From assembly GCA_043821285.1 (NCBI GenBank), contig JBDRCZ010000027.1:18988-82987 (forward strand): a stretch of DNA of 64,000 bases, given 5' to 3'. Numbering within the stretch: the stretch's first letter is position 1; each line of letters begins with the position of its first letter. Source of the stretch: Candidatus Omnitrophota bacterium. Lineage in GTDB: Bacteria; Omnitrophota; Gorgyraeia; B26-G9; JBDRCZ01. Positions 9,718-61,268 of the stretch are shown here, piece after piece. The notes beneath the pieces were generated by a model. That model ran no database searches, was not told the origin of the DNA, and was given only the letters and a program-made list of their open reading frames with translations. The position numbers were made by a program, and so were the translations under genes.

Positions 9718-9803
9718 AATTTTAACCACAGAGAACACAAAGTACACAGAGAAAAACTCTGAATAGCTTTATTCCTGCTCTGTGCTCTCTGTGTGCTCTG
9801 TGG
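9718..9803. repeat. Imperfect inverted repeat (CACAGAG-rich arms) downstream of the CDF gene
   Basis: CCACAGAGAACACAAAGTACACAGAG pairs with CTCTGTGCTCTCTGTGTGCTCTGTGG across a ~25-nt spacer. It could form a hairpin or act as a terminator. Confidence 0.4.
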
Positions 9804-10033
9804 TAAATTATTAATTTTTTAGTATAGCAAAAAAACATAACAAATTCCATAAAAAGTACTTATTACCGAAATAAATCAGACAGGATTAACCGGATAAAAA
9901 AAGATAAAAACTAATCGTGTTAATCATGTAAATCCTGTCAAAAGTAGTTATATTTTTTATTTTTCAACCACGAATTACACAAATCCACACGAATAAATTG
10001 AAGTAAAAGCTGAAAGGAATAAACAAAAAATAT

Positions 10034-17462: not shown

Positions 17463-18250
17463 AGTTAGTGTATTACGGTTCAATAAACCAATCATTAAGA
17501 ATGGACAAAAGTATATCCAGCCGCAAGATGCGGGGTAAATTTTCTTTCCTTCACGAAGGACAGGTGAAATATTTTCTCCACGCGCCACGGACACGACAAA
17601 CATGGACAAGGTAAGAGGGATGGAATAAAATAAAGATATGATCAGACCATATTATTGTTATCATATCTCCAGCCGTGGAGACCGCAGATGCAACAATTGG
17701 GATAACAGTGAAAAATAAGTTTTATATTGATTTATGGAAAAAATTAGCTAAAGGTGCAAATAAAACATTAATCGTAACTGTACATAGATAACTTTCTTCT
17801 TTACCCCCGTTAGAAGAGGATAAATGAAATTCTCTCCCGACAAGGGTTATAGTCTCTAAAGCATTATTTTTTAACCACAGATAGCACGGAAACTTGGATA
17901 AATCTTTTTTGATATCTGTATAATTTGAGTTAGCTGTGGTCTTACTGCTTGTTATTATTAGGATTACAACAGCGTAAATATTTTTCTGCGACGATATATT
18001 TTAAGAAATATTTTAGTAAATTATATTGCAATAATTTAAACGATGAAATGAGCCAAACATCCGCTTTTTTATTTTTTCTGCAACTGGATTTTTGTATAGC
18101 ATTCGCCAGTCAAATTTACCAAGAAGCGAATTTAAAGTTTAATATATAAAAAATTTCTGCTGCTGTATCCCAGTATCACCTTGGCTTAATACCCAATAAT
18201 TTTGCTGCAGAGATAGTCAAGGTAAAGGAATTTTTTTATTCTGTAAACTA

Positions 18251-22928: not shown

Positions 22929-24026
22929 ATGTCGCATAAATTAACACCGCTTAGGATCGGAGATTTAGAAATAAAAATACCAATCGTTCAAGGGGCGATG
23001 GGAGTGATGGTATCAAGGGCTTCTTTAGCCAGTGCCGTAGCAAATTGTGGTGGGGCAGGAACGATTGCCAGTGTAGGATTAGGTTATGGGACCGAAGAAA
23101 ATGAAACAAATTTTGTTAAAGCTTCACGTGAGGGGCTGGAAAGAGAAATACGCCGGGCCAAGGAATTAACCAAGGGAATTATTGGAGTAAATATACTGGT
23201 AGCCTTAAGCAATTATGAGGATTTGGTAAGAGCGTCTGTAAAGGCAAAGGCGGATTTTATTATTTCCGGAGCAGGACTGCCGTTAAGGCTGCCGGAATTT
23301 GCCAATAGTTCAGCAATAAAGCTGATACCGATTGTTTCTTCTGCCAGGGCAGTGGATATTATTATCAAGAGCTGGAAAAAACGCTATAACCGCTTGCCGG
23401 ATGCGATTGTTGTGGAAGGACCTTTAGCCGGGGGGCATTTAGGGTTTAAAACGGAAGAGCTGAAAACAGATAATGCACATACACTGGAAAAGTTAGTAAT
23501 AGATGTTTTAAAAATAGCTGCCGGCTATGAAAAAGAGTTTAATATGCACATTCCGGTTATTGCTGCCGGCGGTATTTTTAATGGCGAAGATGTAGTGAGG
23601 TTTCTTAGATTAGGAGCAAAGGGAGTACAAATTGCCACGCGCTTTGTTGCTACACTTGAATGTGACGTAGCTGAAGAGTTTAAGCAATTATACCTAAAAA
23701 CGAAAAACGAAGACGTCTTTATTATCCAAAGCCCGGTGGGCATGCCGGGAAGGGCGATAAAAACAAAGTTTACAGAGAAAATATTGAGCAAAGAAAAAAT
23801 ACCAGTCGTGTGTAGGTACCGTTGCCTTAAGACCTGTGACCCGGCAAGTACTCCTTATTGTATAATGAAAGCGTTAGTTAACGCTGCCTGCGGCAGGATA
23901 GATGAAGCAGTTGTATTTTCCGGACACAATGTTTATCGGGTAGACAAAATCATATCCGTAAAAGAGCTAATCGATAGCATTATAAAGGAAGCAGAAGAAG
24001 AGCTGGAGAAAACATCGAAGGCGTAG
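22929..24026 (+). CDS. NAD(P)H-dependent flavin oxidoreductase, nitronate monooxygenase / FabK family
   Basis: IPIVQGAMGVMVSRASLASAVANCGGAGTIAS and GGHLG motifs, typical of the NMO/enoyl-ACP reductase II TIM-barrel family. Confidence 0.85.
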   Translation: MSHKLTPLRIGDLEIKIPIVQGAMGVMVSRASLASAVANCGGAGTIASVGLGYGTEENETNFVKASREGLEREIRRAKELTKGIIGVNILVALSNYEDLVRASVKAKADFIISGAGLPLRLPEFANSSAIKLIPIVSSARAVDIIIKSWKKRYNRLPDAIVVEGPLAGGHLGFKTEELKTDNAHTLEKLVIDVLKIAAGYEKEFNMHIPVIAAGGIFNGEDVVRFLRLGAKGVQIATRFVATLECDVAEEFKQLYLKTKNEDVFIIQSPVGMPGRAIKTKFTEKILSKEKIPVVCRYRCLKTCDPASTPYCIMKALVNAACGRIDEAVVFSGHNVYRVDKIISVKELIDSIIKEAEEELEKTSKA

Positions 24027-24493
24027 TGTATAATTCCCTGCCTGCAGCCGGGTCAATTTCTGTCGAAAATATCTGCCGCAATAATGCCCAGGTTTCTTTT
24101 CTCTTTAATTGCTCCGGCTGAATTATCGTTGCCAATGCTGTTTCTGCTCGATAAGCAATCATTTTTATTGTATCCATAATATGTTTTTTCTCAGTTGTAA
24201 GACTGCTGTATTTTTCGGATTCTGGTAATTCAGATATCTGGATATGTTTATCCAGTTTTTTTCGTTGTTCTTTTAATGCAGTGATTTCATTTTGATACAA
24301 TTCAATCATTTCTTGTAATTGCAGCAATTAAGAACCGAAAATTCTTCGTGCTTTTGAAGTAGTAAGATAGAGGGAAGAGCGGGAAAAGGCAATAAAGTGC
24401 AAAAAAGACATTTCGCACTTTATTTTTTTTGTGGTATAATAGGATGTTATATAAATAACATCTTAAAAAGAAGGAAAGAAAGGAGGGGTAAAG

Positions 24494-25352: not shown

Positions 25353-25460
25353 ATGACAGGCCTAAAACACAAAATATGGTTTAAGGCAATAGCATTCATT
25401 TTAATCCAGGCGTTTTTATGCCTGGATTTGTCATTTGCCGCTGGCGGCGATTTGAAAAAT
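25353..25460 (+). other. Conserved N-terminal leader (signal-peptide-like: K/R n-region, hydrophobic IAFILIQAFLCLDL core, AxA-like SFA|AGG site)
   Basis: Near-identical leaders start the genes at 47675, 51255 and 55592. Confidence 0.8.
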
Positions 25461-28400
25461 GTAAATTCTCTGCTCGCACCGACAATAAAATTAGATGAAT
25501 TAGAAGAAGTATTTAATAAAAAATATGTTGCAGAATCTCCAGAAGAACAGATACTTACCCAGAATTTTAATATCAAATTAAGAAAAACTAAAAAAACTAC
25601 AGAACAAGGCACCGCAGTTTCGATTACAGAAGAGCAAGCGGAGTGTATTAGAGCTGCGAGAACGGGTCTGCTTAATGAGTTTACAAACAAAGTATTTAAA
25701 CGTTATTTGACAGCAGTGCAGATAAATGTTCGCGAATTTTTGCCAAACATGGCTCAGCATATGAGCCGAGCGGAGATTAATATAGATGTAGTTGTCTTGG
25801 GTAATGAGACTGCAGTACGGCTTGCCTTATACCACGGAGCACTGCATGGCATTTTAGCTGAGGAGCGGGGGACAGCAGAAACACCGGAAGAGCGCTTTTT
25901 AGAAGAGGTATTTGTTGTACAAAAAGAATTAGAATATTTAAACAGCCTTTCAGAAAAAGAACAGGATAATTATCTAAAATTTTTGAAAAACTCCTACAGA
26001 ATAAACCACGCGGCATTTTTAAAATTATATAGCCGGTATAAAGAAAAGGTAAAAGAAGCAGAGGATAAGGGAGAGGCTCCAGACTTAAGAGTAATTCTGA
26101 GCATGATTGCCAGTTATGTGAAACAAGTCTCCCGGCGTGATAATGACTTTGGTCAAATAAACTTTGATATGCGCACAAATAAGGCCAAGGATGAGGTTCG
26201 TAAGGTAGTCGAGGGGATAGAGATAGCAAAGGAAACTTCTGCTGGAGCAGAGACATCAGAAGCAGACGTTGAGCCTAACACAGCAGCAATATCAGCAGAG
26301 GAATTAGAAGAAGAGGCAAAAACGTTGATAAAACGTTTTATTGATATTGTGTTAACGGTGACAGGGATTAATTTAATAAAAAGAATATACAATTATTTAC
26401 GTGAAAAGTTGTATTTATGGAACAAATCAAGAAAGCAAAGAAAGATTGAAAGACGGAATGGGGAGCTGGAGAAAATTGATCAGGATGACCCGGATTATCA
26501 AGACACGCTGTTTAAACTCTGGAAATTACAGGGATATGACATTAAATCCCTTAGACCACTATATGCATTAGCCAGACGCGTGGATAAAAGATATGCTGCA
26601 CTGAAGCAAGAACTGGAGACAGGTAATGAGCATATGATTGCCGGGAAGAGTAGAGCATTAAAAGACACAGTAACCCTACGGGTGAATAAACTTGCAGAGA
26701 ATGATACCAGAAATAGAAGCAAATTATTAGAACAGGTACTTAATGAAAATAATTATGCGCTTTTGATTGAGGCATTAGCACTGGTACAGGCTGCATTTAA
26801 CCAGGTTAAAGAGATTAAATTATATGATGTACAGATTATTGCAGCCATTGCCGCAAATAAAGGTGATGGGCAGATTATTAGATTATTACCAGGGGAAGGA
26901 AAGACTTATGTCGGAGCGGCGTATGCCTACCTTAACACTCTTGATGGTGCGAAGGTGCACATGCATACTACTTCTGAGTATTATGCTAAACGTGATGCTG
27001 AAGATGTGCGCGGAGTGTTAGAACTTTTAGGCTTAAGCGCTGCATGTTTAGAAAAAGAGAATGAGGAGAAAAAAGAGGCATATGCGGCCGATGTTCTCTA
27101 CGGGGAGAAATCTGAATTCGGGTTTGATTACTTAAAAGACAATTTGAAATATGAGTCTAAAGAAAAAGTTATGCATGGTCTATACCGGGCAATGGTAGAT
27201 GAGGTGGATTATAATATCCAAGATGATGGACGTACGCCACTGATAATCTCAGCAAGAAGTGTGGAAAATATTTCCGAAGTACTTTATATTGCCGTGAATG
27301 ATGTAGTAGCAGGACTTATCCGGGAACAAGCGGAACAAGAGCTTGAAGAAGATGAAAGATATTATGTGCTGGAGAATTTACCCGGCGATACGACTCCTGA
27401 AAAAGCTGCGAATTATACAACTCATTCTGTTGTGTTTACTGAGACAGGATTAAAAGCATTTGAAAAGCGTCTTTTAGAAAAAGGGTTAGCGGAGTTCTCA
27501 AAAGATGATTTTTTATTTTCTAAGACCCATTATTACATTTTTAGTATGGCGGTGCAGGCGCTGCGGGCGCATAAATTATGGTGTATAGACAAAGATTATT
27601 GTATTAATGAGGATAAAAAAGTTGAGCAAGAAAAAGATAGTCAAGAAGGAGATCAAAGGGCAGATACAAAAGATAAAGAGCCTAAAAAAGGACAGGTTGT
27701 ATTGATTGATGAAAGCTCGGGCCGTCTGATGGAGGGCCGGACATTAAGCCATGGGCTGCATCAGGCAATTGAGGCTAAACACCTAAGAGAAGTAATTACA
27801 GCTGATGAAAGGACTACACTTGAAATTAAAACGATTACCCCGCGTTCAGAAGCACAGGGCTCGATTACGGTAGAGTCATTTTATAAATTATATGAAAAAT
27901 TATCTGGAATGAGCGGGACTGTGGATGAAAATGAGGCCAGGCTCTGGGGACGGCAGGGTAAAGAAGTGGTAAGGGTTCCTTCAAATACCCTGCGCCAGCT
28001 TAAGGAGCATGCGGATAGATTATATCTTACCAACAGAGAAAGATTTGCGGCAATGGCAGAGGCGGCACAAGACAAGCAGACCAGAGGACAGCCAGTTGTG
28101 CTCGGGGTATTAACTCCCGAGGATGCGGATTTATTAAGCGGTATGATAGAGGAGCTTGGCATTGAGCATGAAACATTAGATGCGCGTAATCAAAAAGATG
28201 AAGAGCGGATAATTGCGCATGCCGGAAGAAAAGGCCGGGTTACGATTGTTACGAATATCGCGGGCCGGGCAACAAATATTGTTTTAGGCGGTAAAAAAGA
28301 AATACGTATTCAAGAATTAATATCAGAAGAGAGTCTCTCAGCAGAAACAGCAGAGAAAAGATATAAAGATGAAAAGCAGGAAGTTATTGCATTAGGCGGG

Positions 28401-47520: not shown

Positions 47521-47575
47521 GACACGGAGAAAAACTGCAATAAATCAGACAGGATTAAGAGGATAAACAAGATAA
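47521..47575. repeat. Upstream element family A (GACACGGAGAAAAACTG-AATAAATCAGACAGGATTAA ...)
   Basis: About 50 bp nearly identical to 53658-53710. The core AAATAAATCAGACAGGATTAA also occurs at 9868-9900 and 55383-55425. Each copy sits 50-230 nt 5' of a gene start. Confidence 0.6.
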
Positions 47576-47674: not shown

Positions 47675-50600
47675 ATGAACAAGTCAGTACGGACAGTTTG
47701 GTTTAAGGTAATTGTGGTTATTTTAATTAATGCCTTTCTTTGTTTGGACATTGCATGGGCGGCTGGTGGTGATTTAAAGCGGATCTTCCCCCTAATTTTT
47801 CCCATAAAGAGTCTTAATACCCACCTTGCTCCTTCCTTAGCATTGGAAAAATCTACGGAAAGAGATAGTCTTGTTAGGGTATATGGGGGGGGTAAAGGAT
47901 GGTATAATATGGCGGTAAGAACAACAGAGACGGGTGGTCATACAGAGGCGGCTAATCAAGATAAGCCTGCTGCTACAGGAAATATTCTAACTTCATACAT
48001 TATTGCTAAAAATACATTTGTAGTATTTGCTGTAGGAGGTATTGCTATCATTCTCGCGCTTATCTTCAGCGGCTGTGTTTTTTCAGATCTTGCAAACTGG
48101 CTCGATAAAAATATCCAAAAAGGACTGATAGAATTTGTATTCATGGTCAGTTTCTTTTTTGATATATTTGCTATCATTGGGCTGTTAGCAAATTTTCGGC
48201 AGGGATTTGATACGTCTTCGTGGTATTATTCTGAAAGAAAAAGCTTAATAAAGCAAAAAACTGATGTTACGAATAGGTTGAGAGGCTTAATAAAGATTAA
48301 TGAAACGGCAGAACGAAGTATGGACTGGCCTTATGAGACGGAATTTGACCCGATTATAACGAGAGAGTTTCGCACCTTAAAAGATATAAGTGAACGTCTG
48401 CGCGGTTTTATTCCGCATGTATTAGACAGGGTAAAAATCTTGGGCCGGGACATAACAAAAGAGAAAATAGAAGGGAAAATTCTCCAATTACGGATTGATA
48501 CCAATAGCCGGATAAGACCCAAGGATGATGGTACCCATGAGCTAATCTATCCTAATGACCAAAGAATGACCGCTATTGTACGCTCAATTAAGGAACATCT
48601 TAGATATAATCCGCGCGGAATTGTTATTAATGGACATTTGGGCCGGCCGCAAGAACAAATACAACAAGTTATTAGAGAAACTATCCGAGATAACCCGAAT
48701 TGTTCACGAGAAATGATAGCTTTACTAGCAAAACTGATAATTGCTGAACGAAAACGTGATCCGGAAACTCTGGAACAAGTGTTAGATAATTCTGCTTATT
48801 ATCGTAGTATATTGCCAAAAGCAATAAGAGGTGAGCTTAATGGAGCGGGGTATACCGTAATAAAAGAAAAGATGAAAGAAGATATTGAGCAGATTGTTGC
48901 TGGTAGAGAGTTGGATACTATTTATGACCGGATAGAAGAAGAATTGCAAAGAGCATTGGGAAGGGAAATAAAAATCCAGAGGGCGCCGGATAGTATTGGT
49001 AGTGATGTGCAAGCGCAGATTGACGGTTTACAAAATGAGGCAATTCTCGGACTGCCAAATGTCAGGTTTCATGAAGAAGAGGAGATTTTTGCCGTAGGAG
49101 TCATGTTAGAGGAACTATTAACAAGTTTAGACAACGTTGGATATGTGCGTAACGACACAATACTCGAGTTTGAGGATAGAGTAAAACACCTCTATGACCG
49201 GTCACGGCTGTTCTTTGCTTTAGATGAGCTCAGCGCTATTGTAAGGAAATTAATCGGTGATGTTAATGAAGAGGAATTTAGTGGAATTGTTGATGATACA
49301 AGTCGGCTTTTCGAGGCTTTAGTCAACAATCAGTATATCACTGAACAAGGCGGCATTCTAGACAGATTTGGCAGGGTAAGAATATTTTCTGATATGCAAA
49401 TAGAAGGCTATACAGATGAGCAAAAAGAAAAAATTTTTAAGATTTTGCAAAACTGCCTAAAGAGAAATATAATTCAAAAACTTCAACAGGAAGAAACACA
49501 GAAAAGACTTAGAGAGATAAACAACGTCATTAAAGAAAAGGAAGAGGCATTTAGAAAGGAATTTTTTGCCGGGGCCGAGGTTTCCATAATGGATGCTCCC
49601 GGTCCTTTACTACGCAACCATGTCTCAATCGTAGGGCCTCCACAGAAATCAAATACTGAGCATGGGCTGGGTATTTTAGTAGCGGATGAACTGCGTTCTG
49701 TTGGCAATGCCAGAGAAAATCTGCAGGTAATGATTTTTGGCGGCGGAAATGATTTAATTGAAAAATTGATTTTAGTTGAAGGTATCGTGAAGAATACCTT
49801 ACAGCCAGGGGGAATGCTGGTTTTAGGCAGTAGTGCGGAAACTGCTTTTGTGCTAGAAAGAGCGGGTCCTGATAATAGAAGAAAAATTTGTATTAATAAT
49901 ACGGATGAAGAAATTGAGGAAATTATAAAAATAGTTAAAAGAATCGAAAACATTGCTAAGGCTAAGAAGATAACTATTCGTCACCCCATAGTTATAAAAG
50001 CTAGTAAAAGATCATCGGCAGAAATACTTAGTTTACTAAGAACTATTGGAATAGAGGAAGTTGAAGTTGTTAGAAAAGAAGAATTTTCAGAAATTGCCGC
50101 TGATATTGGTGAGGATACAGACAGACTTTTTAATCATTTGATACAATATGGTTATATTACACAAATTAGAAATGAGTATGGTTTAATAACAGATAAATTT
50201 AAAGGCTTAAAAGATCATGCGGGAATGGAGATAGATTTTTTATATGCGGATAAAAAACAAGAAATATATAATATTTTAAATAGGGTAAAACTTAGGGCGT
50301 CTGATGGATGGAGAGTTAGCCAAGGTCAAGGTGATTATGCATTAGATCTAATGGATGATGAAATTAATAGAATTATTATCGATATTCGTAAGGTATTAAA
50401 CGGTAATCCCAAGGGTTTAATCGTTATGCATGGGACAGTGGGGGTAACTGTTCAGCCGTTGCTTACCGGCACAGAGAAATTGCTAATGGGGCTTGCGGAG
50501 ATTTCAGAAGAGGGAACACCGGTAGTTGTCAGCGGAGCCAGTACTACAGAAGTGGCGAGGAGGCTCGGAATAGAATTAGGTCCAAACTCTCGTATTACCC

Positions 50601-51160
50601 CTTCCGGTATTTCAAATTTGCGGGTGTTAGGAGCGAACGATGAGCTTGATGTGCTCGCGTTAAGGTCCGCAGCAAGAAGTGATAAAAAAATAGAAGAGGC
50701 AGAGCAAAGAATAGTAAATGAAAAAAAATGGCAAGCAAGACGTACTATAGGCTTTTTGATGATGTTCTTAGCTTTCTCAGTAGGAGTTTACATATTAGGT
50801 ATTGGTATTATGAATTTTATTGAGACGCATAAGAATTTGACAGTTATTATAGGAATGCTGTTTTTTGCTATACCAATGGGTACTTGGTTTTCCCATAGAA
50901 AATACCATGGCTCCCTCCGGTATGCCTTTGAGCCATATTTAAGTGAGCAAGATAGTTCTCGAACATCGGACCACAGCTCTAATTCTGCTCCTTTTAGAAT
51001 AAATGATGGAACTAAGAGCTCACAGACTCGAAGATTGGGACACATTGATGAGAACGATGGTGCACATGATATGGGGGCAAAAGAGACACCGGTTATATCT
51101 CCACCAGCAATAACTCAAAGAGAATTAGTGGAGTTAAGAGCAATAGAAATGGCGATCTGA
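47675..51160 (+). CDS. Leader-family protein 2 (1,161 aa): shared leader, 2 TM helices near the N-terminus, large soluble region, 2 C-terminal TM helices; function unknown
   Basis: The ORF track starts at 47633. The preferred start is the ATG at 47675, MNKSVRTVWFKVIVVILINAFLCLDIAWAAGG, 5 nt after a GGAGG. Hydrophobic stretches are FVVFAVGGIAIILALIFSG, FMVSFFFDIFAIIGLLANF and, near the C-terminus, FLMMFLAFSVGVYILGIGIM and VIIGMLFFAIPMGTWF. No known catalytic motif was recognised. Confidence 0.85.
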   Translation: MNKSVRTVWFKVIVVILINAFLCLDIAWAAGGDLKRIFPLIFPIKSLNTHLAPSLALEKSTERDSLVRVYGGGKGWYNMAVRTTETGGHTEAANQDKPAATGNILTSYIIAKNTFVVFAVGGIAIILALIFSGCVFSDLANWLDKNIQKGLIEFVFMVSFFFDIFAIIGLLANFRQGFDTSSWYYSERKSLIKQKTDVTNRLRGLIKINETAERSMDWPYETEFDPIITREFRTLKDISERLRGFIPHVLDRVKILGRDITKEKIEGKILQLRIDTNSRIRPKDDGTHELIYPNDQRMTAIVRSIKEHLRYNPRGIVINGHLGRPQEQIQQVIRETIRDNPNCSREMIALLAKLIIAERKRDPETLEQVLDNSAYYRSILPKAIRGELNGAGYTVIKEKMKEDIEQIVAGRELDTIYDRIEEELQRALGREIKIQRAPDSIGSDVQAQIDGLQNEAILGLPNVRFHEEEEIFAVGVMLEELLTSLDNVGYVRNDTILEFEDRVKHLYDRSRLFFALDELSAIVRKLIGDVNEEEFSGIVDDTSRLFEALVNNQYITEQGGILDRFGRVRIFSDMQIEGYTDEQKEKIFKILQNCLKRNIIQKLQQEETQKRLREINNVIKEKEEAFRKEFFAGAEVSIMDAPGPLLRNHVSIVGPPQKSNTEHGLGILVADELRSVGNARENLQVMIFGGGNDLIEKLILVEGIVKNTLQPGGMLVLGSSAETAFVLERAGPDNRRKICINNTDEEIEEIIKIVKRIENIAKAKKITIRHPIVIKASKRSSAEILSLLRTIGIEEVEVVRKEEFSEIAADIGEDTDRLFNHLIQYGYITQIRNEYGLITDKFKGLKDHAGMEIDFLYADKKQEIYNILNRVKLRASDGWRVSQGQGDYALDLMDDEINRIIIDIRKVLNGNPKGLIVMHGTVGVTVQPLLTGTEKLLMGLAEISEEGTPVVVSGASTTEVARRLGIELGPNSRITPSGISNLRVLGANDELDVLALRSAARSDKKIEEAEQRIVNEKKWQARRTIGFLMMFLAFSVGVYILGIGIMNFIETHKNLTVIIGMLFFAIPMGTWFSHRKYHGSLRYAFEPYLSEQDSSRTSDHSSNSAPFRINDGTKSSQTRRLGHIDENDGAHDMGAKETPVISPPAITQRELVELRAIEMAI

Positions 51161-51254
51161 AAAATTTGACAACTGACAATTAGAAAATTCGAGGATTATA
51201 AGATTCAAAAAACATTTGGATTTATTTAGGATTTAAAAATGTATTTGGTGAGAT

Positions 51255-51352
51255 ATGTGTCAATTAAAGCAAAATATCTTATTTAAAATAATAGCGGTAG
51301 TACTGATAAATGCCTTTTTCTGTATGGATATTGCCTGGGGCCGGCCTATAGC
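51255..51352 (+). pseudogene. Decayed third copy of the shared leader (MCQLKQNILFKIIAVVLINAFFCMDIAW-), frameshifted and truncated; the rest of the 255-aa ORF is spurious read-through over the antisense brnTA
   Basis: The leader and 5' UTR (GTATTTGGTGAGATATG) are homologous to the copies at 47675 and 55592. After GCCTGGG the sequence loses ~25 nt relative to the paralogs, and the frame changes. The downstream ORF body overlaps two well-supported minus-strand genes. Confidence 0.6.
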
Positions 51353-51410
51353 ACTGCTTCACACCGATAGTATCGGAATTCCTGTTGGGAACTTAGTGAT
51401 TTATCTGCGA

Positions 51411-51683
51411 TTAGGAATGCCGGAGATGATGCCGTTCTTTAGCCAGGCGTTCACTGATCCAAGAACGGATAAGACTAAGATACCCCAGCCCCTTATCTGC
51501 AGCGATTTGTTTAAGAGATTTAATCTGCGGTGTATCCAAACGCAAGGAAATGAGTTTCTTTTTTGGACGAACAAATTCTGCTTTTGCTGGGGTGAGTTCT
51601 TCCAAAAATTCTGTGATGCTATGACGATCCCAGAATTTGCGTTCTTCCTCAAGAGACTTAAATTTTGGTATTTTTCTTTTCAT
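51411..51683 (-). CDS. brnA: BrnA-family antitoxin (CopG/RHH-type)
   Basis: 90 aa. The pattern KSLEEERKFWDRHSITEF ... ISLRLDTPQIKSLKQIAADKGLGYLSLIRSWISERL is typical of BrnA antitoxins. It lies immediately downstream of brnT. Confidence 0.8.
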   Translation of the reverse strand: MKRKIPKFKSLEEERKFWDRHSITEFLEELTPAKAEFVRPKKKLISLRLDTPQIKSLKQIAADKGLGYLSLIRSWISERLAKERHHLRHS

Positions 51684-51689
51684 AATTCG

Positions 51690-51956
51690 TTATCTCCTTT
51701 TGTAAAACTTTTGTTCAGCTTTCGACATTGCCCGCGCGGTAATTATTTTTGCGCTGTTTGTGCCGCGATACTCAAATATTATCGTCAGATATCTTCCGCT
51801 TTCTGTTTGCCCGAGGGCGAAATAGCGATAGTCTCGACTTTTCAAAATAAATGGTTTGCCTTCAAAACAAACCTCTTCTACTTCCCTGGGGTCAACGCCG
51901 TGTTTAGCGATATGCCAAATAGTATTTTCGTTCCACTCGATATGTGTAATTTTCAC
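51690..51956 (-). CDS. brnT: BrnT-family toxin (DUF497 ribonuclease toxin)
   Basis: 88 aa. MKITHIEWNENTIWHIAKHGV ... EVEEV matches BrnT/DUF497. A 6-nt gap separates it from the downstream antitoxin gene. Confidence 0.8.
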   Translation of the reverse strand: MKITHIEWNENTIWHIAKHGVDPREVEEVCFEGKPFILKSRDYRYFALGQTESGRYLTIIFEYRGTNSAKIITARAMSKAEQKFYKRR

Positions 51957-52338
51957 ACGTACACCTCAGTTAATAGTATATTTCGAAATACAAAAGATGT
52001 CAAGAGTTTTATGCAACGATAGGAAAATAGCAAGGACACAGTTAATTGCTTATTTTTTAACAACAAATCGCACATGTTGTACGGATTTTTAATATTTGTG
52101 TTATCTGAGCTATCTGTGGTTAAAAAGATTCTCCCGTAAAGCCGCAAGGTTTGCTTAAAGTAATACTTTTCAGTTATACTCAGTACTGCTACACCCATCT
52201 ATCCATGTGATCTACCCATATACTCATTCCCCCATCTTTTACAAAATTCAACTTTTATACAATATTTCAATTTTCTCTTGACCATACAAAAATTGTATGG
52301 TACATTAGATGTATGGTTTACGGCAGGAGGGATGCATA

Positions 52339-53469
52339 ATGGTAAAATTTCCCGTAGGCACACCAGTTATGGGAAAAGATTTAATTGGCCGTCGAGATGA
52401 GTTAAGGCAGTTAGAAGACTTGCTTGTTTCTGGACAAAGTGTCATTTTAACTTCTCCCCGGCGCTATGGGAAGACTTCAGTTTGCCTAGAATTGTTAAGC
52501 CGGCTTAAAAACAAAAAATATTTTGTGGTTTATTTAGATATTTTTTTGATTTTAAGTAAACGAAGATTTGCCGAGGAGATTGTAAACAAAACTCTTGAGA
52601 ATAAACAGGTTAGAAATTTTACGTATCAACTAAAAGAACGTTTTACAGAACTATTTCGTAAAATTGAGGTTAAACAGGTGATTAAAGATTTTGAATTCGT
52701 ATTATCGTTTAAAGATGAGAAGATAGATGAATGGGTTTTATTAAAATCTGCGTTGGAATTTCCAGAAGAATTTGCTAAAAAATACAAACGGAGAATGATT
52801 GTTATTATTGATGAATTTGGCGATTTGGCGAAATTAAATGGCGTGGAATTATTTAAATATATGCGGGCGATTTTTCAAAGACAGTCTTCCTGCAGTTATT
52901 TATTCACCGGAAGCCATGAAAGCATTATGAAAAAGCTTTTTTTTGATAAAAGACAGCCTTTCTTTCGTTTTGGCATTATGATGAAGTTAGACGTGTTACC
53001 AAAAAAAGAGACAAGTTTTTATATTAAGGAAAGGTTTAAACAAGCGGGATTAAAAATATCGGAGCGCGAAATTGATTATATTTTGCAGAAAAGTCACGCG
53101 CATCCTTATTATACGCAGCTTTTGTGTCAGAAGATATATTTTAGGATTTTGTCAAAAGGAAAAAATGAGATTAGCCAAGATGATATAGCAGAGGCATATC
53201 GGGAGGCGGTTATCACGGAGAAAGATTTTTTTGAAGAGCTTTGGATGGACTTAATGAGTAAGAAATATTATGCCAGGGTAGTTAAAGAACTTGTGTTGAA
53301 AGAAGGTCCTATTTATACAGTCGCGGATTTTAAAGGAGTAAATTTGGCAAGGATTCTCAAAAATTTAAGGGATAAAGGAATTATCGTAAAGGAAGATAAA
53401 AAATATAGTTTAAAAGACCATTTTTTCCAAGACTACATCAAAATACGTTTGCAGGGTAAGATGTTTTAA
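52339..53469 (+). CDS. AAA+ ATPase, archaeal-ATPase (PF01637-like) family
   Basis: The ORF track starts at 52309. The preferred start is the ATG at 52339, 6 nt after an AGGAGGG SD. Walker A is SPRRYGKTS and Walker B is IVIIDEF. The length and C-terminal region fit ATPase/DUF234-type proteins. Confidence 0.8.
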   Translation: MVKFPVGTPVMGKDLIGRRDELRQLEDLLVSGQSVILTSPRRYGKTSVCLELLSRLKNKKYFVVYLDIFLILSKRRFAEEIVNKTLENKQVRNFTYQLKERFTELFRKIEVKQVIKDFEFVLSFKDEKIDEWVLLKSALEFPEEFAKKYKRRMIVIIDEFGDLAKLNGVELFKYMRAIFQRQSSCSYLFTGSHESIMKKLFFDKRQPFFRFGIMMKLDVLPKKETSFYIKERFKQAGLKISEREIDYILQKSHAHPYYTQLLCQKIYFRILSKGKNEISQDDIAEAYREAVITEKDFFEELWMDLMSKKYYARVVKELVLKEGPIYTVADFKGVNLARILKNLRDKGIIVKEDKKYSLKDHFFQDYIKIRLQGKMF

Positions 53470-53759
53470 CATTTAAACCGTTGCGCTACGGTAAAAAATA
53501 ACATAGTAATGTAAAAATGGCAGCTTGTGTGGTATAATTATACTAGATCAATTACGTATTATAACTATGTATAAATATGGAGTATTGCGAGTGCCCCGTT
53601 GTGCGGAGCGGCTGTTCGGGGTATTGAGCATAAAAAATAAATAAAAAATTTTACTAGGACACGAAGAAAAACTGAAATAAATCAGACAAGATTAACCTAA
53701 TAGACAAGGAGAACTTTCCTTTATATACTTGTTGCTTGCCTATGTTGAGAGGTATAAGG

Positions 53760-54191
53760 ATGTACAGGCGGTATACCGCAGATATGCTGCGGTCTAATCT
53801 TCATGAGATTTTTGTTAAGTTTGCTGCGGTTTTAGTCCATCTTTTTGGTTCACAGGTCACAGGGCGCCTGGGACCAATGAGTGATGTAGATTTAGCCGTG
53901 CTTTGGGATGACAAAGAACAGCAGCCAATGATGAAAAGCCTTGCTTTACAAGAAGCAGTGAGAACTAAGCTTCAAGATGAAAAGTTTGAGATCGGCCCGC
54001 TTAATGAGCAGCCGCTTAGCTTCTGCTATAATGTGATTAAAGATGGGGTCTGCATCTTTGGTAAAGAGTCTGACCGTGTTAGATACGAAACATATATTCT
54101 CAATGAGTATTTAGATTTTTTGTATTTAGCTGAGGAATACAATAAGGCCTTTACAAAGGCTGTTTGTGAGGAAAAAAGAATTGATAAATAG
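53760..54191 (+). CDS. mnt: Minimal nucleotidyltransferase (MNT-type antitoxin of HepT/MNT systems)
   Basis: The ORF track starts at 53736. The preferred start is the ATG at 53760, 9 nt after a GAGAGG SD. GSQVTGRLGPMSDVDLAVL is the GS-x9-DxD NTase motif. The gene overlaps the downstream HEPN gene by 26 nt. Confidence 0.8.
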   Translation: MYRRYTADMLRSNLHEIFVKFAAVLVHLFGSQVTGRLGPMSDVDLAVLWDDKEQQPMMKSLALQEAVRTKLQDEKFEIGPLNEQPLSFCYNVIKDGVCIFGKESDRVRYETYILNEYLDFLYLAEEYNKAFTKAVCEEKRIDK

Positions 54192-54474
54192 AGAAGAGTT
54201 CTACCGGCGATTAGATGAAATAAGAGAGGCAGTTAACTTCTTAAGAAAAATAAAACAGGAGGACTTAGAAATAGAGGAGAAGTTTCTCTTGGCAAGGTAC
54301 GAGCTGCAGATTATCTTAGAGGCAATGTTTACCACCGGTAATCAAATTATTGCCAATAGCATACTTAGGAAGCCCACGGGTTATAAGGACATTTTAACAG
54401 TTCTATATGAAAATAAGATATTAGAGAAAGAATTATACGAGCAACTAATTCCCTTTGTCGGATTACGTGGTTAA
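54166..54474 (+). CDS. hepT: HepT-like HEPN (DUF86) toxin, apparently C-terminally truncated before the R-x4-6-H motif
   Basis: 102 aa. The protein ends ... LIPFVGLRG*, where DUF86 proteins normally continue ... VGFRNxxVHEY. Its gene order with the MNT gene is the typical HepT/MNT pairing. Confidence 0.65.
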   Translation: MRKKELINREEFYRRLDEIREAVNFLRKIKQEDLEIEEKFLLARYELQIILEAMFTTGNQIIANSILRKPTGYKDILTVLYENKILEKELYEQLIPFVGLRG

Positions 54475-55353
54475 ATTTTTGTTTTTTCTCTTTCTCTACA
54501 TTCGCTACATTTGATTATTCTTTTCTATCTTTTGTCCGGTTTGTTAATTTTTTTCTGCTTTTATAGTATTCTTTGCGTTCTTGGCGGCTTTGCGGGATGA
54601 TTTGTTGCAAAAATCTGCAAAATATTTCCAACCCTTTTTATTTGATGCATAGCTCTTTTTATATCAAACACTTACAACCCATCACACAAAACAGAGAAAT
54701 AAAAAAATCACAAAATACCCTTGAAATTTCCCAAAAATATGGTATACTTGTAAAATGCCTTATTTATAATAGATTTTAAATTTATTTACAAATAATTTAA
54801 CATATAAAAATCACAAATAATTGCAGGCGATAATCAAAAATGGGCCAAAAATAATAATATTGAATCCATTCAGATTTAATATCTCCCTGTTTAGGTTAGA
54901 AAACTCCCTTAAATTCCAGATTGTATAAATCTGGAAAGCTCTGTTTAAAAAGCTGATTGTTTATGCAAAGCGGGGTTGTTTTTGGCTAATTCGATAGGCA
55001 ACTCCTTTCAACACGATTAATTTTATCATACGCGGCAATAAAATAAAACGATTTTTTCTTGCAGCCTAAATACTTATACCTTTTTCTCCTGTGAACCATT
55101 ATTATTTTTGGCGCACTTTTCATTATTCCCTACACGCGCATATGATTCCATAGAGAGCAGGAAACAAAAATGCATCCCGCACGTATTTAGGATGATTGAA
55201 CGTTACTCAAGGGATGAAGATGAGATAAAGCCTTTTGTGAAGAACTGAAGGAGTTAATGAAATGTGTCGATCTATTTATTTAAACAGAGAAAGCACGTGA
55301 AAGATTACCTTATTCAGCGGGCGGATCTTATCGCAAAAGTAAAAAACGGGATT

Positions 55354-55425
55354 AGTATTGCGTATTGAGTATAAGAAATTAAAAAAATCAGACACGATTA
55401 ACTGGATATCAGGATAAAAAAACTT
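55354..55425. repeat. Composite upstream element: family B (AGTATTGCGTATTGAGTATAAGAAATTAAAAAAA) fused to family A (AATCAGACACGATTAACTGGATATCAGGATAAAAAAA)
   Basis: The same B-then-A arrangement occurs at 53581-53710, and in split form at 9661-9900. Confidence 0.6.
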
Positions 55426-55591
55426 AGTGTGCGGATAAAATTTTTGAATTTTAGTATGTCATTTTGATTTTTGGACTTCTCCTCCGAAGGCGGATCCGCC
55501 TCTGGCGGAGATTTTTGGATTAAATTTAGAAATTAGGTCAATTAGAGCAATTAGACATTAATTAGAAATTAAAGAGTGTATTTGGTGAAAT

Positions 55592-58500
55592 ATGAGGAAG
55601 CAGAAATATAATATCTTATTTAAACTAATAGCATTGATACTAATCAACGCCTTCTTCTGCATGGATATCTCCTGGGCCGCAGGTGGTAATATAAGAGGTC
55701 TAACTACCCATCTTGCACCACGGTTGAATATAAGTGATTTAAATAGTGTTTTTGAAAAAGTAACACCAGGAGCGATCCAGTTTGATAAAGATATAGCTGT
55801 CTTTAGATATCAGGTTGGAGAAATTTATGAAAATAATAGGTCCGTAGAAGAAATAACCGCACTGATAGAACAACATAAAGAATCTTTTATATCTGCCTTA
55901 TATGTTGAAAAAGAAATAGAGGGTAATAGTTGGCGTAAGAAAGAACTAAGAAGCATGAATTATACGGAACTGTGCACGCTTATTCCATCGGATGATTCGT
56001 ATGCTGAACCTGTTATTTACGCACAACATAAGATTAAAGCTGTTCTTGGTGGAAGGCGTGTTTCCGCACCTATTAGCATGGCGGGTTCATGGATAGAGGA
56101 TCTGAAATGCGTTATGGATATAGAAGAGCGTTATAGAAATGAGACAGTTATGAGAGAGCAAATGACGCCGAGTCAGCAGAAGATTCATGAGCTATGGAAA
56201 TTATACCGTGACCTGGGCGTAGGAATGGTAATGCCGGTGGATGATAACAACACAGTCTACTTATACAATCGGGAGGACGTGGGGTCGCTATTATATAGCA
56301 ATGAAGAACTTAGGTTTGCATTAGATGGTTTGATTTCACCTGCATCTACTGAAGCCTTGTTTAAGTCAGATGTGCTACAATTAGTAGCTTTAGAACCAAT
56401 GATCTGGGGATTTCCTAACCCAATAACAGCATTGTTCCCAGAGATTCTTCAGATTTGTCTTGAGCATATGCGTTCGGCCGCAGATTTAGACCGAATCATT
56501 GAAAACAGACATAAGGAAGATTTGATTTTTCCTCGAATAAAGCTTAACTTTTTGTTATGCGATGTAGGCGGACTTACAGCAGCAGCCAGAGAACTATATA
56601 TTGATCCACATATTGTTGTGACAGTTGAAACGAGACAAAGACAGGCAAGAGCTGCAAGTATAGTTGCTCAGATACCTTCTCAGATTAAGGCTGAACAAAT
56701 TCCAAAAAGCACGCGGCAAGCTTTTGTAGAACATATGCAGAGAATTGTTCAGATAGCAACAGGTGTTACTAATGCGGAGATTGATAATAGATTGCTCATT
56801 TCCCTAATGAACCGCATAGCTATTAATGAAAATTATCCCCTTTTGGGTGTTAACATATTTAGATTTAGAGTTCGTGATAAAAGAGGCGAGAGAGAATATG
56901 CTAAAGATATTTTTCATTTTGAGGTAGATGTTGCTAAACAGAATGTTTTTATTATGGATAGTGAAGGAAATAGACGTCAATTTGCTTTGTCATCTGGCTT
57001 TGATGTACGAACAATAACCACGATCTTGGATCTTGAGATCAAAACTAAACAAGGCAGCAGAAATCTATTTGAATATCTTTTTGAAAGAAAGTGGCTACCA
57101 GAGGATGTGACACGTGAGATGATTATTAGTCAGGATATGACACCAGAGATCCACTTTTATTTTGTTTTAGATGAACGCCACAGGCTTCAATATACAACCG
57201 CAGAAATTGGACGAAAAACTATAGAACTTGTGTTTATGGATGAAGGTATTCGATGGTGGAAAGGGATTGGGAATACTGAAGAACAATCATACGTATCAGA
57301 TTATGGGGGGAAAGACTTCCGAGTTAGTATAGCAAGCGGTCAGATAGTTACCATAGGGCATTTACATCCTCTATTACACGGCAGTGTTCAAAGAAAGCAA
57401 AAAGTTCTTGTGCATGCAGGTGATGCAGCAGCTTATTTGCATCTTGGCAATCAGGTAAGAGAGCGCTGTCCAAATACAAAAATTTCGAATATAATCGTTG
57501 ATACAGTGGAGCATGGAAAAGAATGGATGGTGAGAATTTTTATTCCAAGATTATCGGTCAATTGGAACGAATATAATGCTCTTATTAAGCAGGCCAAGAG
57601 TAGCGATAAGCAATTAAGAAGAGGGAGTGAACAACGCATCAATGAAATAACCCAACACATACAAGAAAATATAGATGATTATTTTGAAGTAGTTGAAATA
57701 CCGATTATACTTGAGGATGAAGGTGATAGAAAAATGCCAAATCCTCCGCCAGTTGTAGCTACTCCTATTTCTCCCAAACCGTCTTCTGTCTCGTTGTCAG
57801 GTCTTACCTATGATGAACATGAGCGTGACATAGACCGTCGGATTGCAAAAGAGATAGAAAAATATTATAGCAAACCATTGCCATGGGCGCCAAAGTCGCT
57901 CAAGAGGGTAATAGCAGTTTTTATACCCCAGTCTTTTACGAAACCATATACATTAGAAGATTCTCAAGCAAAGCTTGTAATGGAATTCTTGGAAAATGTG
58001 GGGTTAGTTTCTCTAAAAGACCTTTTCAAAACAGAGGTTCGCAGTGGTCGAGTATGGCAAATTGATAGCCGGCCGAAAAAAGTATATGCTAATGGCCATG
58101 CTGGGCCTCGGGGAATTTATGTATTTAATCCTGATACTATTTTTGGGGGGCCTAAAGATATAGTTAGATGGGAAGCGGGTGTGTTGATTCATGAGATTAT
58201 TGCCAAAGCGGGCTGTTCACATAATCAAGCATTAGCAATGCAAAAGGTTTTTGACTGGTATTATCGGGATAAAGGAGGATGGATTTCAGGAGATGTTTGG
58301 CAGCACCGCATTAATACTAAAGTTGCTGGATTATTGACAGACTTAAGCGCTTTGAGCGAGTGGCCAGAGCTTCCTCAAGGCAAGGGGGCTGAAATATCTC
58401 GCGACCTTGCTGAGCAATCTGGATTAAAAGCACCACCAGGGACGACTACTTCTCAGGAAAAGATAGTTCTTTTAATAAGACTTATCAATGATGGTCTTGA

Positions 58501-60343
58501 ATACCCCACTGGACGTGCGGTTGAAAAGTGGATAGAATCTATATGCAAAAAAATAGCAGAATTTGATGGGACACTTCCGGACAAAACTAAAAAAAACATA
58601 AAATCTGTATTTCTTAATAAACTTGTAGAAATTATGCTCGAAGATCATGGAGAGATTTATTTCATTATTCAACCAGTTATTGAAGTTTTTGAAAAAACTG
58701 GGATTAGCATAGCAGATAAAGATATAGTTAGAAAAATAACAGAGCTTGCAGAAGCCAGACAGGACAACCCTGCAGTGCTGCCGCAAACTATCTACGCCCC
58801 GACTGATTTTTTGTCAGTGTTTGGGGAACATTTTAATGGTTTAAATTTAGAAAACACAGAACTTCAAACAATAGAGCTTGCGATACGGATATTTTACAGG
58901 TATTCTTATTGGCTTGATGTGATGGTAAAACAAGGCCTGTCATATCAACATGCAGCCAGGGCTTTAATATATTATTTACAAATACAAGAAAGATTAAACA
59001 AGATAAGCATTTCTGTGCAGGGAAACTCCCAAGACGAAAACCCGGATACGCACCCTTCGTTACGATGGAAGCCAGATGCTTTTATACAACTTATACGAGT
59101 GGCTGTTCTTGATCCAGATAATGATATTGAGTTAAAGAGTTTAGCCAAGCAATTATATAGTGATGATCAATTTGATTCGTGGGAAGATATTTATAATCGT
59201 ATACCGGAACCTAACCCAAATGGCCAGGACGAAATTGGTACTTCTTCCGAGGTAAAGAAGAGTGGTGCATTAAAACATATAGGAACCCATCCGGCAAAAG
59301 AAGTGTCGGAAGGTGTTATGGGCATATGGAGAGAAGCTGCTGCTAACAAATTAGTTGAGACGAAGACGATACAAGATAAAAAGATAGAAGCTATATTTAT
59401 CTTTGATGCTGTATATATGCCAGAAGACAGGGCAGGCCATCATTTTTATGATAGAGAGGGCAATCTTGTAATAGTTACTCGTGCAAAAATAGAATCTGAG
59501 ACTCTTGAAGGTATAATCGCTGGAGAAACAGCTTATCATGATTCAGATGAGGCAGGTTGGAGAACGTGGCTTAGCCTATATGGTAGCCTATATGAAAATT
59601 TGACAGAAGAAGAAATTAAACGTCGATCCCACATCCTTGCCTCAGCAAGGCAAGTTTTTGCCTTTAGTGAAAATGGTGAGCTTACTCCATACCATAAACA
59701 ACAGCTTACCAAGATGCCATTAGATAGGCTCATACAATTGATGCTGGAAGACAGAGCAGATCAGCATAACATAATAAGACGATATCTTAATGAAGCAGAT
59801 TTTGCCAAAATTGTGATGTATGAAACTCGATTTAGGCAAATAGTTAAAGAAAAGATAAGATTGTTAATAATGAACGAATTGCCTGGAGATGCCAAAGTTA
59901 TATTAAGCAGCCAAGGCCAGCAAGCAATTTCTTTTACTTTTACAGAACCGGTATTAATTTGTATTGGTGGCACAGTGCTTATATTGCATGAAAAAGATGG
60001 TGTATTAACCTTAGAAGTTTCAAAAGATATATGGGAAAGAAAAGAAATGCTTTTAAGGGAAGCGTATTATGATGTTGGCAATGATGAGTTAAGACCAGAA
60101 GCGATGAATAATTTTAATATCCCAGATTCTAGAGTTTCCGGTATTCATTTTACTATTCAACGTAGAAGGGAGAGTATTACTATTGCCAGACATCCGCTTG
60201 GAGGAGATACGGTGGTTTATTTTACTAAGGCCTTGCCGACTGGATCTGCAGATGCCCGTACAGATGTTGCTGAAATGCCGGATACAGGGTTTTTAGCAGT
60301 TAAACGAATGGAATACATTTTGGAAGTAGAGAGAGCAATCTAA
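55592..60343 (+). CDS. Leader-family protein 4 (1,583 aa): shared leader followed by a large hydrophilic body without further TM segments; function unknown
   Basis: MRKQKYNILFKLIALILINAFFCMDISWAAGGNIRGLTTHLAP. The 5' UTR GTGTATTTGGTGAAATATG is homologous to the paralog UTRs. No recognisable catalytic motifs. Confidence 0.85.
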   Translation: MRKQKYNILFKLIALILINAFFCMDISWAAGGNIRGLTTHLAPRLNISDLNSVFEKVTPGAIQFDKDIAVFRYQVGEIYENNRSVEEITALIEQHKESFISALYVEKEIEGNSWRKKELRSMNYTELCTLIPSDDSYAEPVIYAQHKIKAVLGGRRVSAPISMAGSWIEDLKCVMDIEERYRNETVMREQMTPSQQKIHELWKLYRDLGVGMVMPVDDNNTVYLYNREDVGSLLYSNEELRFALDGLISPASTEALFKSDVLQLVALEPMIWGFPNPITALFPEILQICLEHMRSAADLDRIIENRHKEDLIFPRIKLNFLLCDVGGLTAAARELYIDPHIVVTVETRQRQARAASIVAQIPSQIKAEQIPKSTRQAFVEHMQRIVQIATGVTNAEIDNRLLISLMNRIAINENYPLLGVNIFRFRVRDKRGEREYAKDIFHFEVDVAKQNVFIMDSEGNRRQFALSSGFDVRTITTILDLEIKTKQGSRNLFEYLFERKWLPEDVTREMIISQDMTPEIHFYFVLDERHRLQYTTAEIGRKTIELVFMDEGIRWWKGIGNTEEQSYVSDYGGKDFRVSIASGQIVTIGHLHPLLHGSVQRKQKVLVHAGDAAAYLHLGNQVRERCPNTKISNIIVDTVEHGKEWMVRIFIPRLSVNWNEYNALIKQAKSSDKQLRRGSEQRINEITQHIQENIDDYFEVVEIPIILEDEGDRKMPNPPPVVATPISPKPSSVSLSGLTYDEHERDIDRRIAKEIEKYYSKPLPWAPKSLKRVIAVFIPQSFTKPYTLEDSQAKLVMEFLENVGLVSLKDLFKTEVRSGRVWQIDSRPKKVYANGHAGPRGIYVFNPDTIFGGPKDIVRWEAGVLIHEIIAKAGCSHNQALAMQKVFDWYYRDKGGWISGDVWQHRINTKVAGLLTDLSALSEWPELPQGKGAEISRDLAEQSGLKAPPGTTTSQEKIVLLIRLINDGLEYPTGRAVEKWIESICKKIAEFDGTLPDKTKKNIKSVFLNKLVEIMLEDHGEIYFIIQPVIEVFEKTGISIADKDIVRKITELAEARQDNPAVLPQTIYAPTDFLSVFGEHFNGLNLENTELQTIELAIRIFYRYSYWLDVMVKQGLSYQHAARALIYYLQIQERLNKISISVQGNSQDENPDTHPSLRWKPDAFIQLIRVAVLDPDNDIELKSLAKQLYSDDQFDSWEDIYNRIPEPNPNGQDEIGTSSEVKKSGALKHIGTHPAKEVSEGVMGIWREAAANKLVETKTIQDKKIEAIFIFDAVYMPEDRAGHHFYDREGNLVIVTRAKIESETLEGIIAGETAYHDSDEAGWRTWLSLYGSLYENLTEEEIKRRSHILASARQVFAFSENGELTPYHKQQLTKMPLDRLIQLMLEDRADQHNIIRRYLNEADFAKIVMYETRFRQIVKEKIRLLIMNELPGDAKVILSSQGQQAISFTFTEPVLICIGGTVLILHEKDGVLTLEVSKDIWERKEMLLREAYYDVGNDELRPEAMNNFNIPDSRVSGIHFTIQRRRESITIARHPLGGDTVVYFTKALPTGSADARTDVAEMPDTGFLAVKRMEYILEVERAI

Positions 60344-60712: not shown

Positions 60713-61268
60713 AGCTGAACCAATAGGGGAGGCGCCTGTAGCTTAAAGCCGTATTGGGGAAAACCCGATGTATCAAGCCGTGTTTTAAGGGTATTACTTG
60801 AAGAGCCTAAAAAAGAGTGGAGGATGCTGGAATTATCAAAAACCGCAAAAGTAAGCCTTGGCCAAACGTCTAATGTCTGTCGTTGGCTTATCGATGAGGA
60901 ATATCTTAAAAAAACATGGCGGTTATTCTTTAACTGAACCTGGTAAGTTATTGGATGAGTGGTGCCAAAATTATACTTATACGCAGAATAAAATGTCCGC
61001 TTACTATTCTTTTGAGCAGAATCCGGAAAGATTAATTAAAAAGATAATACAGATTAGTAAAGAGAAAAATTTAAAGTATGCTTTTACTTTGTTGTCCGGT
61101 GCTTCTTTCGTCGCTCCGTTTGTCAGAGGTATAACCAGTTTGCAGATGTATGTTGCTGACAATGAAGATCTTTCTAACAGGGTTCGTTTACTTGACCTGC
61201 GGCCAGTGGAGTCAGGAAGCAACATTTTTATGCATATTCCTTATGATGAAGGAGAAAAACATGGATAG
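60713..61268 (+). pseudogene. Disrupted gene for a wHTH-containing protein (N-terminal ...RVLRVLLEEPKKEWRMLELSKTAKVSLGQTSNVCRWLIDEEYL in one frame, 136-aa C-terminal domain in another frame); possibly an AbiEi-like antitoxin/regulator
   Basis: Manual translation gives an HTH-like ORF in frame 2 with no ATG at its N-terminal boundary, running into a stop at ~60885. The ORF at 60858-61268 continues in a different frame. Together these suggest a frameshifted pseudogene. Confidence 0.4.

Follow-up and report, generated by a model that had tools for sequence, protein, structure and literature searches.

An orphan leader copy beside a BrnT-type toxin–antitoxin operon in a leader-gene array of Candidatus Omnitrophota

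Introduction

In toxin–antitoxin (TA) systems of the BrnTA family, the toxin gene precedes the antitoxin gene. Integron cassettes carry attC sites, whose core sites follow the consensus RYYYAAC and GTTRRRY. These two kinds of element, the first of them represented by the BrnT/BrnA pair of Brucella abortus (PDB 3u97), are among the described systems closest to the locus presented here, as are 5′ pseudogene fragments stranded beside mobile TA or defence islands. A giant gene in the same stretch recalls the giant and large membrane or secreted proteins of Omnitrophota, for which one preprint reports SecA_DEAD domains (bioRxiv 10.1101/2023.11.21.568195).

Here we describe an orphan copy of an N-terminal leader that stands next to a convergent BrnT toxin gene and its RHH antitoxin gene, the arrangement that a preliminary description of this DNA had correctly recognised. 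The locus lies in a 64,000-nt stretch (the window; GC content 39.8%) of an 86-kb contig belonging to a Candidatus Omnitrophota genome that was assembled from a metagenome (locus tags ABH952_*). We delimit the leader copy and the TA module, describe what fills the space between the neighbouring leader genes, and weigh how the two elements came to be adjacent.

Results

A six-frame HMM search of the window identified four plus-strand ORFs that open with a common N-terminal leader. These are a 7342-aa giant (25353–47381; leader 25353–25510), a 1161-aa PGK-domain fusion (47675–51160, true start 47675; leader 47675–47840), an orphan leader with its ATG at 51255 (leader 51255–51341), and a 1583-aa protein (55592–60343; leader 55592–55750). 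The bodies of the three intact genes are mutually unrelated, and the 1583-aa protein has no homologue besides itself. The giant carries SecA_DEAD, P-loop_SecA and SecA_PP_bind domains close to its N-terminus and is typical of Omnitrophota giant genes; visual inspection adds an HLHLG motif like that of M23 peptidases, numerous hydrophobic segments and an extended (TD)n run. The PGK fusion, labelled merely 'phosphoglycerate kinase' by NCBI, joins transmembrane segments and a phosphoglycerate-kinase domain (PF00162, E = 5e-22) to the leader, and has a domain of ~80 aa in common with the C-terminal part of the giant. Just upstream of the giant gene and a DUF6788 ORF lies a Transposase_29 fragment on the minus strand (23980–24327; PF21804, profile positions 421–509 of 562).

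The 20-mer AATAAATCAGACAGGATTAA occurs four times in the window (9870–9889, 47539–47558, 53676–53695 and 55382–55401), where chance alone would give 0.06. Every copy reads on the plus strand, 60–230 nt 5′ of plus-strand genes that include two intact leader genes and an MNT gene, and the orphan leader has none upstream. We regard the 20-mer as a candidate promoter or regulatory element. Some 80 nt before the start of the 1583-aa gene, at 55478–55511, is a GC-rich palindrome, TCTCCTCCGAAGGCGGATCCGCCTCTGGCGGAGA, probably no more than a hairpin or terminator. It gives the sole Rfam match, a sub-threshold PsrR1-like hairpin at 55434–55516 (29.7 bits, gathering score 42).

The leader extends well beyond the window. 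Pfam and NCBIfam hold no model for it, and a word-index search returned nothing; it took an exhaustive profile search of metagenomes to recover the family, which matched 108 protein-cluster representatives at E ≤ 1e-3, almost always at residues 1–60, in host proteins of 67 to 6383 aa. Twenty-five looked-up representatives come from the same genome assembly, often at adjacent locus tags, and the giant ORF brings the count in this genome to at least 26 proteins. Carriers include the SecA-domain giant, the PGK fusion, methyltransferases, a site-2 protease and an AAA protein, together with short leader ORFs of 67, 118 and 142 aa in the same genome, whose locus tags are ABH952_06340, ABH952_09745 and ABH952_07460. 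The module itself consists of a basic N-terminus and a hydrophobic stretch ending ..AF[FL]C[LM]D[IL][SA]WA, followed by AGG.LK.L.THLAP.L.I. From this pattern, the hydrophobic stretch is predicted to resemble a signal peptide with a site of the AxA type. Another Omnitrophota contig (L001) carries four leader genes in a similar tandem arrangement. Term searches of West-Roberts et al. and of a 2026 complete-genome preprint turned up nothing on conserved leaders or orphan copies. The leader family is an undescribed, portable N-terminal module on otherwise unrelated proteins, and it yields tandem arrays both here and in L001.

The orphan copy, hereafter the stub, keeps the 5′ end of a leader gene. 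At the DNA level, 51222–51343 aligns at ~75% identity to 55558–55679, the segment that spans the upstream region and start of the 1583-aa gene. The 33-nt 5′ UTR of the stub (51222–51254, in local alignment with 55558–55591) retains a Shine–Dalgarno-like GGTGAG 5 nt before the ATG, and the UTR of the 1583-aa gene has GGTGA in common with it. Codons 1–29 (51255–51341, plus strand; MCQLKQNILFKIIAVVLINAFFCMDIAWG) match the leader HMM in the six-frame search at E = 1.4e-17. Scored against a profile built from 25 intact family members, these 29 residues reach 65.6 bits, in the middle of the 57–72 bits of the intact members themselves. At every one of the ten columns that are invariant across the four window copies, the stub has the conserved residue, and residues 1–29 conform to the signal-peptide-like pattern K..[IL][WL]FK.IA..LI[NQ]AF[FL]C[LM]D[IL][SA]W. 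With its ATG, Shine–Dalgarno sequence and invariant residues all intact, the stub is a true and undecayed leader copy, much as the preliminary description had it (UTR and first ~28 codons). Either its truncation was recent or it is still under selection.

Beyond codon 29, the resemblance to the family stops sharply. Alignment of the leader 5′ regions, the check that had been proposed for this purpose, delimits the breakpoint at about 51343, inside GGGGCCGGCC (51341–51347). The sequence GGCCGGCC is found just twice in the window, and the break falls where signal peptidase is predicted to cut (AW-A/AGG in intact copies). Past the stub, the rest of the module (AGG.LK.L.THLAP.L.I, residues 30–52) has no match in any of the three frames (−1.5 bits). 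Likewise, the DNA of 51344–51420 does not rise above shuffled sequence in comparison with the three intact copies (100–370 of 500 shuffles reach its score), and its ungapped identity to them, 19–23 of 75 positions, is that of chance. Residual colinear matches at 51353–51371 (the giant's LLAP codons) and 51383–51403 (the 1583-aa gene) were set aside as not significant against shuffles. Because leader homology is undetectable past ~51343 in any frame, the earlier proposal of a short deletion followed by loss of frame is unsupported; the frame in fact stays open to 52022, for 255 codons. The next 67 nt (51344–51410) form a spacer that lies outside both the leader family and the conserved brnTA module, and that contains small palindromes and, at 51364–51376, a hairpin weakly resembling a plus-strand terminator.

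Past the spacer, two small minus-strand genes converge on the stub. The first to be transcribed, brnT (51690–51956; 88 aa, GTG start), matches PF04365 (BrnT_toxin, DUF497; E = 1.5e-12) over the whole profile (positions 1–77 of 77) with 48.1 bits against a cutoff of 34.5, so the toxin assignment came through the HMM search suggested for it. Its residues 6–83 align to residues 36–113 of B. abortus BrnT (PDB 3u97_A, E = 0.008), PF04365 is precomputed on all 25 BrnT homologues, and NCBI already annotates the product as a BrnT family toxin (MFH1776479.1). The antitoxin gene (51411–51683; 90 aa) starts 6 nt downstream of brnT, giving a toxin-first order. Its product matches PF12441 (CopG_antitoxin, E = 4.4e-16; 59.8 bits, cutoff 28) at profile positions 2–78 of 79. 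The canonical BrnA half of the earlier assignment did not hold: there is no PF14384 match at E ≤ 0.01, and the NCBIfam BrnA model (NF047399) gives 29.7 bits, under its cutoff of 60. On these profile matches, the name BrnA-like RHH antitoxin suits the protein better than BrnA sensu stricto. The same pairing of brnT with an RHH antitoxin recurs on four contigs elsewhere (L003, L004, L005 and L008). By analogy with the BrnTA family, BrnT would be a ribonuclease toxin, and the antitoxin would neutralise it and repress the promoter.

The limits of the module are set by comparison across contigs. A promoter of the form TTGACA-17 nt-TATACT, with 11 of 12 consensus matches, lies upstream of brnT on the minus strand (51975–52003). 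The sequence CTTGACATCTTTTGTATTTC-N5-TATAYT is conserved between the window and four modules elsewhere (L003, L004, L007 and L009), and the short contig L008 displays the spacer and −10 box only. The conserved promoter spacer is probably an operator. When the window is aligned with L003 and L004, DNA homology begins with the −35 box and ends with the brnA stop codon. The module occupies a TA-rich island with an IS3-type transposase in L003 and adjoins groES/groEL in L004. Since promoter-to-stop homology recurs in these unrelated contexts, brnTA is a self-contained mobile unit. Neither target-site duplications nor terminal repeats were seen at its ends, in the repeat list or in the flank alignments, and PADLOC gave no confident defence-system assignment for the pair.

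Farther upstream of brnT is a 17-mer, TTTTAACCACAGATAGC, that the preliminary description had taken for a promoter-associated motif. It is present as described (52109–52125, minus strand, zero mismatches), ~105 nt upstream of the brnTA −35 box. Its promoter role falls away, given that the actual promoter is at 52003–51975 and that homologous brnTA loci (L003–L006) lack both the motif and the imperfect inverted repeat of which it forms part. That repeat, TTTTAACAACAAATCGC...GCTATCTGTGGTTAAAA (52055–52125), contains the motif in one arm and folds as DNA no better than shuffled sequence (z-scores −0.65 and −1.46). A further copy of TTTTAACCACAGATAGC, at 17869, sits between convergent genes. The motif is a small dispersed repeat, unrelated to the brnTA module. 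As a separate observation, imperfect inverted repeats starting TTTTAACCACAGA form a family in the window (9720–9810, 17869–17935 and 52055–52125), in which the 9720 copy alone folds significantly better than shuffled sequence (z = −3.0); these repeats may be REP- or MITE-like.

The stub and brnTA occupy one end of a 4.4-kb gap between intact leader genes (51161–55591), most of which is an accessory stretch of ~4.2 kb. Divergent from brnT is a gene for a 386-aa ATPase_2/AAA_14 P-loop protein (52309–53469). This protein has a weak PADLOC match to mad8 (E = 9.5e-5) and weak NCBIfam anti-phage matches; PADLOC gave it no confident defence-system assignment, and it is possible that it is a defence-type NTPase. 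An MNT gene follows (53736–54191), and then a truncated HepT (54166–54474), whose Pfam match covers profile positions 3–87 of 120 and whose sequence ends ..GLRG*, just ahead of the catalytic Rx4-6H motif. The next ~1 kb (54475–55370) is AT-rich (26–32% GC) with no recognisable gene, and Pfam found no match in the small ORFs of 54475–55400. Together, the HepT truncation and the AT-rich stretch probably mark another rearrangement scar. No transposase, integrase or recombinase is present in the gap.

What is missing from the gap is the body of the truncated gene. A tblastn search of 51161–55591 with the 108 family proteins and the giant protein returned the leader only and no body remnant; the bodies being so diverse, a decayed remnant could have been missed. 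The lack of a body remnant means that at least one deletion or replacement is required and that a single insertion is insufficient. For comparison with other genomes, searches of GTDB genomes that took the 1583-aa protein or the leader alignment as query yielded no closely related genome, and a metagenome scan for related loci recovered two distant loci only.

The open frame that continues from the stub needs its own explanation. From 51255 to 52022, 255 codons on the plus strand, the reading frame of the leader carries on into the frame exactly codon-complementary to brnA and brnT, which is open because the two genes hold no TTA, CTA or TCA codons. In the preliminary description, an intact long ORF running on from the leader was to count against truncation. 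An ORF of that kind exists, formally, at 255 aa; its extension is the shadow of the TA genes and contains no family body. Pfam gives no match for it, nothing past residue 29 resembles any of the 108 family proteins, and its codon-usage score is negative (−0.24). It is not among the NCBI annotated proteins, where a single accession lies between the PGK-fusion protein and BrnT.

The absence of antisense-stop codons has a probability of ~5e-5 under host codon usage, and in 13 host genes no antisense frame stays open for more than 119 codons. Given the codon usage of the homologues, the probability is ~0.1. The three closest homologues (L007–L009; toxins 73–81% identical) also lack TTA, CTA and TCA codons and have no leader nearby. 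More widely, four of the six brnTA modules examined have no stop in the codon-complement antisense frame of either gene. Avoidance of these codons in the subclade could be a matter of donor codon usage or of a conserved antisense feature. Substitutions among brnT homologues fall mostly at sense third positions (18, 13 and 42 at the first, second and third positions), so the antisense protein is not conserved. A selected antisense gene was considered and rejected, since L007–L009 have the open antisense frame without any leader. Thus, the 255-codon ORF is a shadow ORF, a by-product of the codon usage of this TA clade, and not the body of a leader-family gene.

Discussion

We think it likely that the locus pairs a dead leader-gene stub with a mobile brnTA operon, the two joined by a rearrangement that included a deletion. 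Under this reading, 51222–51343 would be the dead 5′ stub of a former leader-family gene whose body was wholly lost by deletion or replacement. The segment 52003–51411 on the minus strand would be a self-contained, horizontally mobile type II TA operon comprising promoter, brnT and RHH antitoxin, seated in an accessory stretch with the ATPase_2 gene, MNT and truncated HepT, and AT-rich DNA. The rearrangement would thereby have set two independent things side by side. The brnTA operon may simply be a former downstream neighbour of the lost gene. We infer both the order of these events and the stub's lack of function.

The preliminary description had offered, as one cause, that the TA pair inserted into a family member and destroyed it. 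A single insertion, of brnTA or of the whole island, that split an intact family gene with no other event strikes us as unlikely. The stub does lie just 67 nt from the brnA stop codon, and brnTA is evidently mobile, one and the same promoter-to-stop unit recurring where the surroundings are unrelated. Insertion would, however, be expected to leave the remainder of the gene on the far side of the insert, where tblastn finds none, and no target-site duplication, terminal repeats, transposase or integrase have been seen; as a sufficient cause, insertion fails for want of a body remnant anywhere in 51161–55591. A more elaborate version is very unlikely. In it, the leader copies at 51222–51343 and 55558–55679 would be att-like direct repeats left by a 4.2-kb island that entered the 1583-aa gene at its 5′ end, bringing a replacement leader and leaving the displaced copy as the stub. 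The stub is indeed closest, at the DNA level and with the UTR included, to the next leader downstream, and the two copies, with the accessory genes between them, form a direct repeat spaced by 4337 bp. Yet they are just ~75% identical and their longest identical run is 15 nt, at the protein level leaders from other parts of the genome match the stub about as well (69–71%), the island is without a recombinase, and similarity upstream of the leaders fades gradually, as it does for paralogous UTRs. An assembly artefact created by repeated leaders is the least probable account of the junction, one to which we give almost no weight. The source is a metagenome-assembled genome with at least 26 leader copies, which might favour such an error; against it, window leaders share at most 15 identical bases, far under assembler k-mer sizes, and the break falls at the leader end and not within an identical stretch. 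The same figure, 15 nt as the longest identical run between any two window leader regions, makes not only assembly error unlikely but also ongoing recombination between paralog 5′ ends, which had been put forward as a role for the boundary.

Two further readings would give the neighbours a purpose. The stub could still function, either by placing a signal peptide on the 255-aa antisense product or through antisense transcription that modulates the TA operon, which we regard as highly improbable. Its intact ATG, Shine–Dalgarno sequence and invariant residues would suit such a role, as would an in-frame run of 255 codons against a host maximum of 119 in 13 genes and the lack of a strong terminator between stub and brnA. 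The open antisense frame is, however, a property of the brnTA clade that L007–L009 display with no leader; in-frame joining is a 1-in-3 chance; the ORF has neither Pfam match, homologues nor NCBI annotation and scores −0.24 on codon usage; and the third-position bias of substitutions indicates an antisense protein that is not conserved. Scarcely better placed, and improbable in our view, is the idea that TA modules have been retained because they stabilise the leader-gene array, addicting the host against its deletion. In its favour, brnTA, MNT–HepT and a weak AbiEi-like ORF (60858–61268) all lie in or beside the array. Against it, the four-gene leader array in L001 is without TA genes, contigs with homologous brnTA hold no leader match in a six-frame search, the HepT is truncated, and a family gene has been lost right beside brnTA, the opposite of stabilisation. 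This earlier suggestion is therefore unsupported. We return to a dead stub joined to a mobile brnTA operon by a rearrangement with deletion as the reading that we favour.

By themselves, the stub and the TA pair amount to ordinary genome decay, within an accessory stretch, beside an already annotated BrnT-type operon. Of more interest is the leader family, which offers a handle on the surface or secreted proteome of these uncultured, possibly predatory bacteria and lets one ask how export signals come to be acquired by giant-protein genes and the genes next to them. One idea, which we hold to be unlikely, is that the leader (UTR, signal peptide and AGG...LAP segment) might be a portable 5′ cassette that Omnitrophota graft onto unrelated genes for cell-surface routing. 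Were that true, the stub and the short ORFs of 67, 118 and 142 aa would be shuffling intermediates or leftovers, and the stub would mark an active site of 5′-module exchange in place of simple decay. Speculatively, a break at the predicted cleavage site is compatible with a portable 5′ module.

Set against described systems, each element of the locus has a partial counterpart. The window giant and the Omnitrophota giants of West-Roberts et al. (bioRxiv 10.1101/2023.11.21.568195) both have SecA_DEAD domains; the window giant also bears the leader, and a term search of that preprint returned nothing on a leader common to many smaller proteins.

Like an integron cassette, the window has a small TA operon with its own promoter beside an imperfect inverted repeat, and the repeat ends TTTTAAC...GTTAAAA, resembling the attC core sites. 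Unlike integron cassettes, it has no integrase domain in neighbouring genes, and the other copies of the repeat are not beside cassette-like genes. An attC/integron origin was rejected on the poor folding of the repeat, the lack of an integrase, and the fact that the repeat is not conserved with the brnTA module.

As in Brucella abortus BrnT/BrnA, the toxin belongs to PF04365, with a nearly full-length alignment to 3u97, and the operon keeps the BrnTA-like order, with the toxin first, a small RHH antitoxin 6 nt on, and a single upstream promoter. The window antitoxin belongs to PF12441 and the Brucella-type antitoxin to PF14384. The stub, for its part, is most like the 5′ pseudogene fragments found beside mobile TA or defence islands. 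As in those remnants, homology is lost sharply, no body is present, a mobile TA operon abuts the break, and truncated genes lie nearby (the HepT and the transposase fragment). Unlike those remnants, the stub is undecayed, and its extent is precisely that of the signal-peptide segment in a portable leader module that otherwise unrelated genes have in common.
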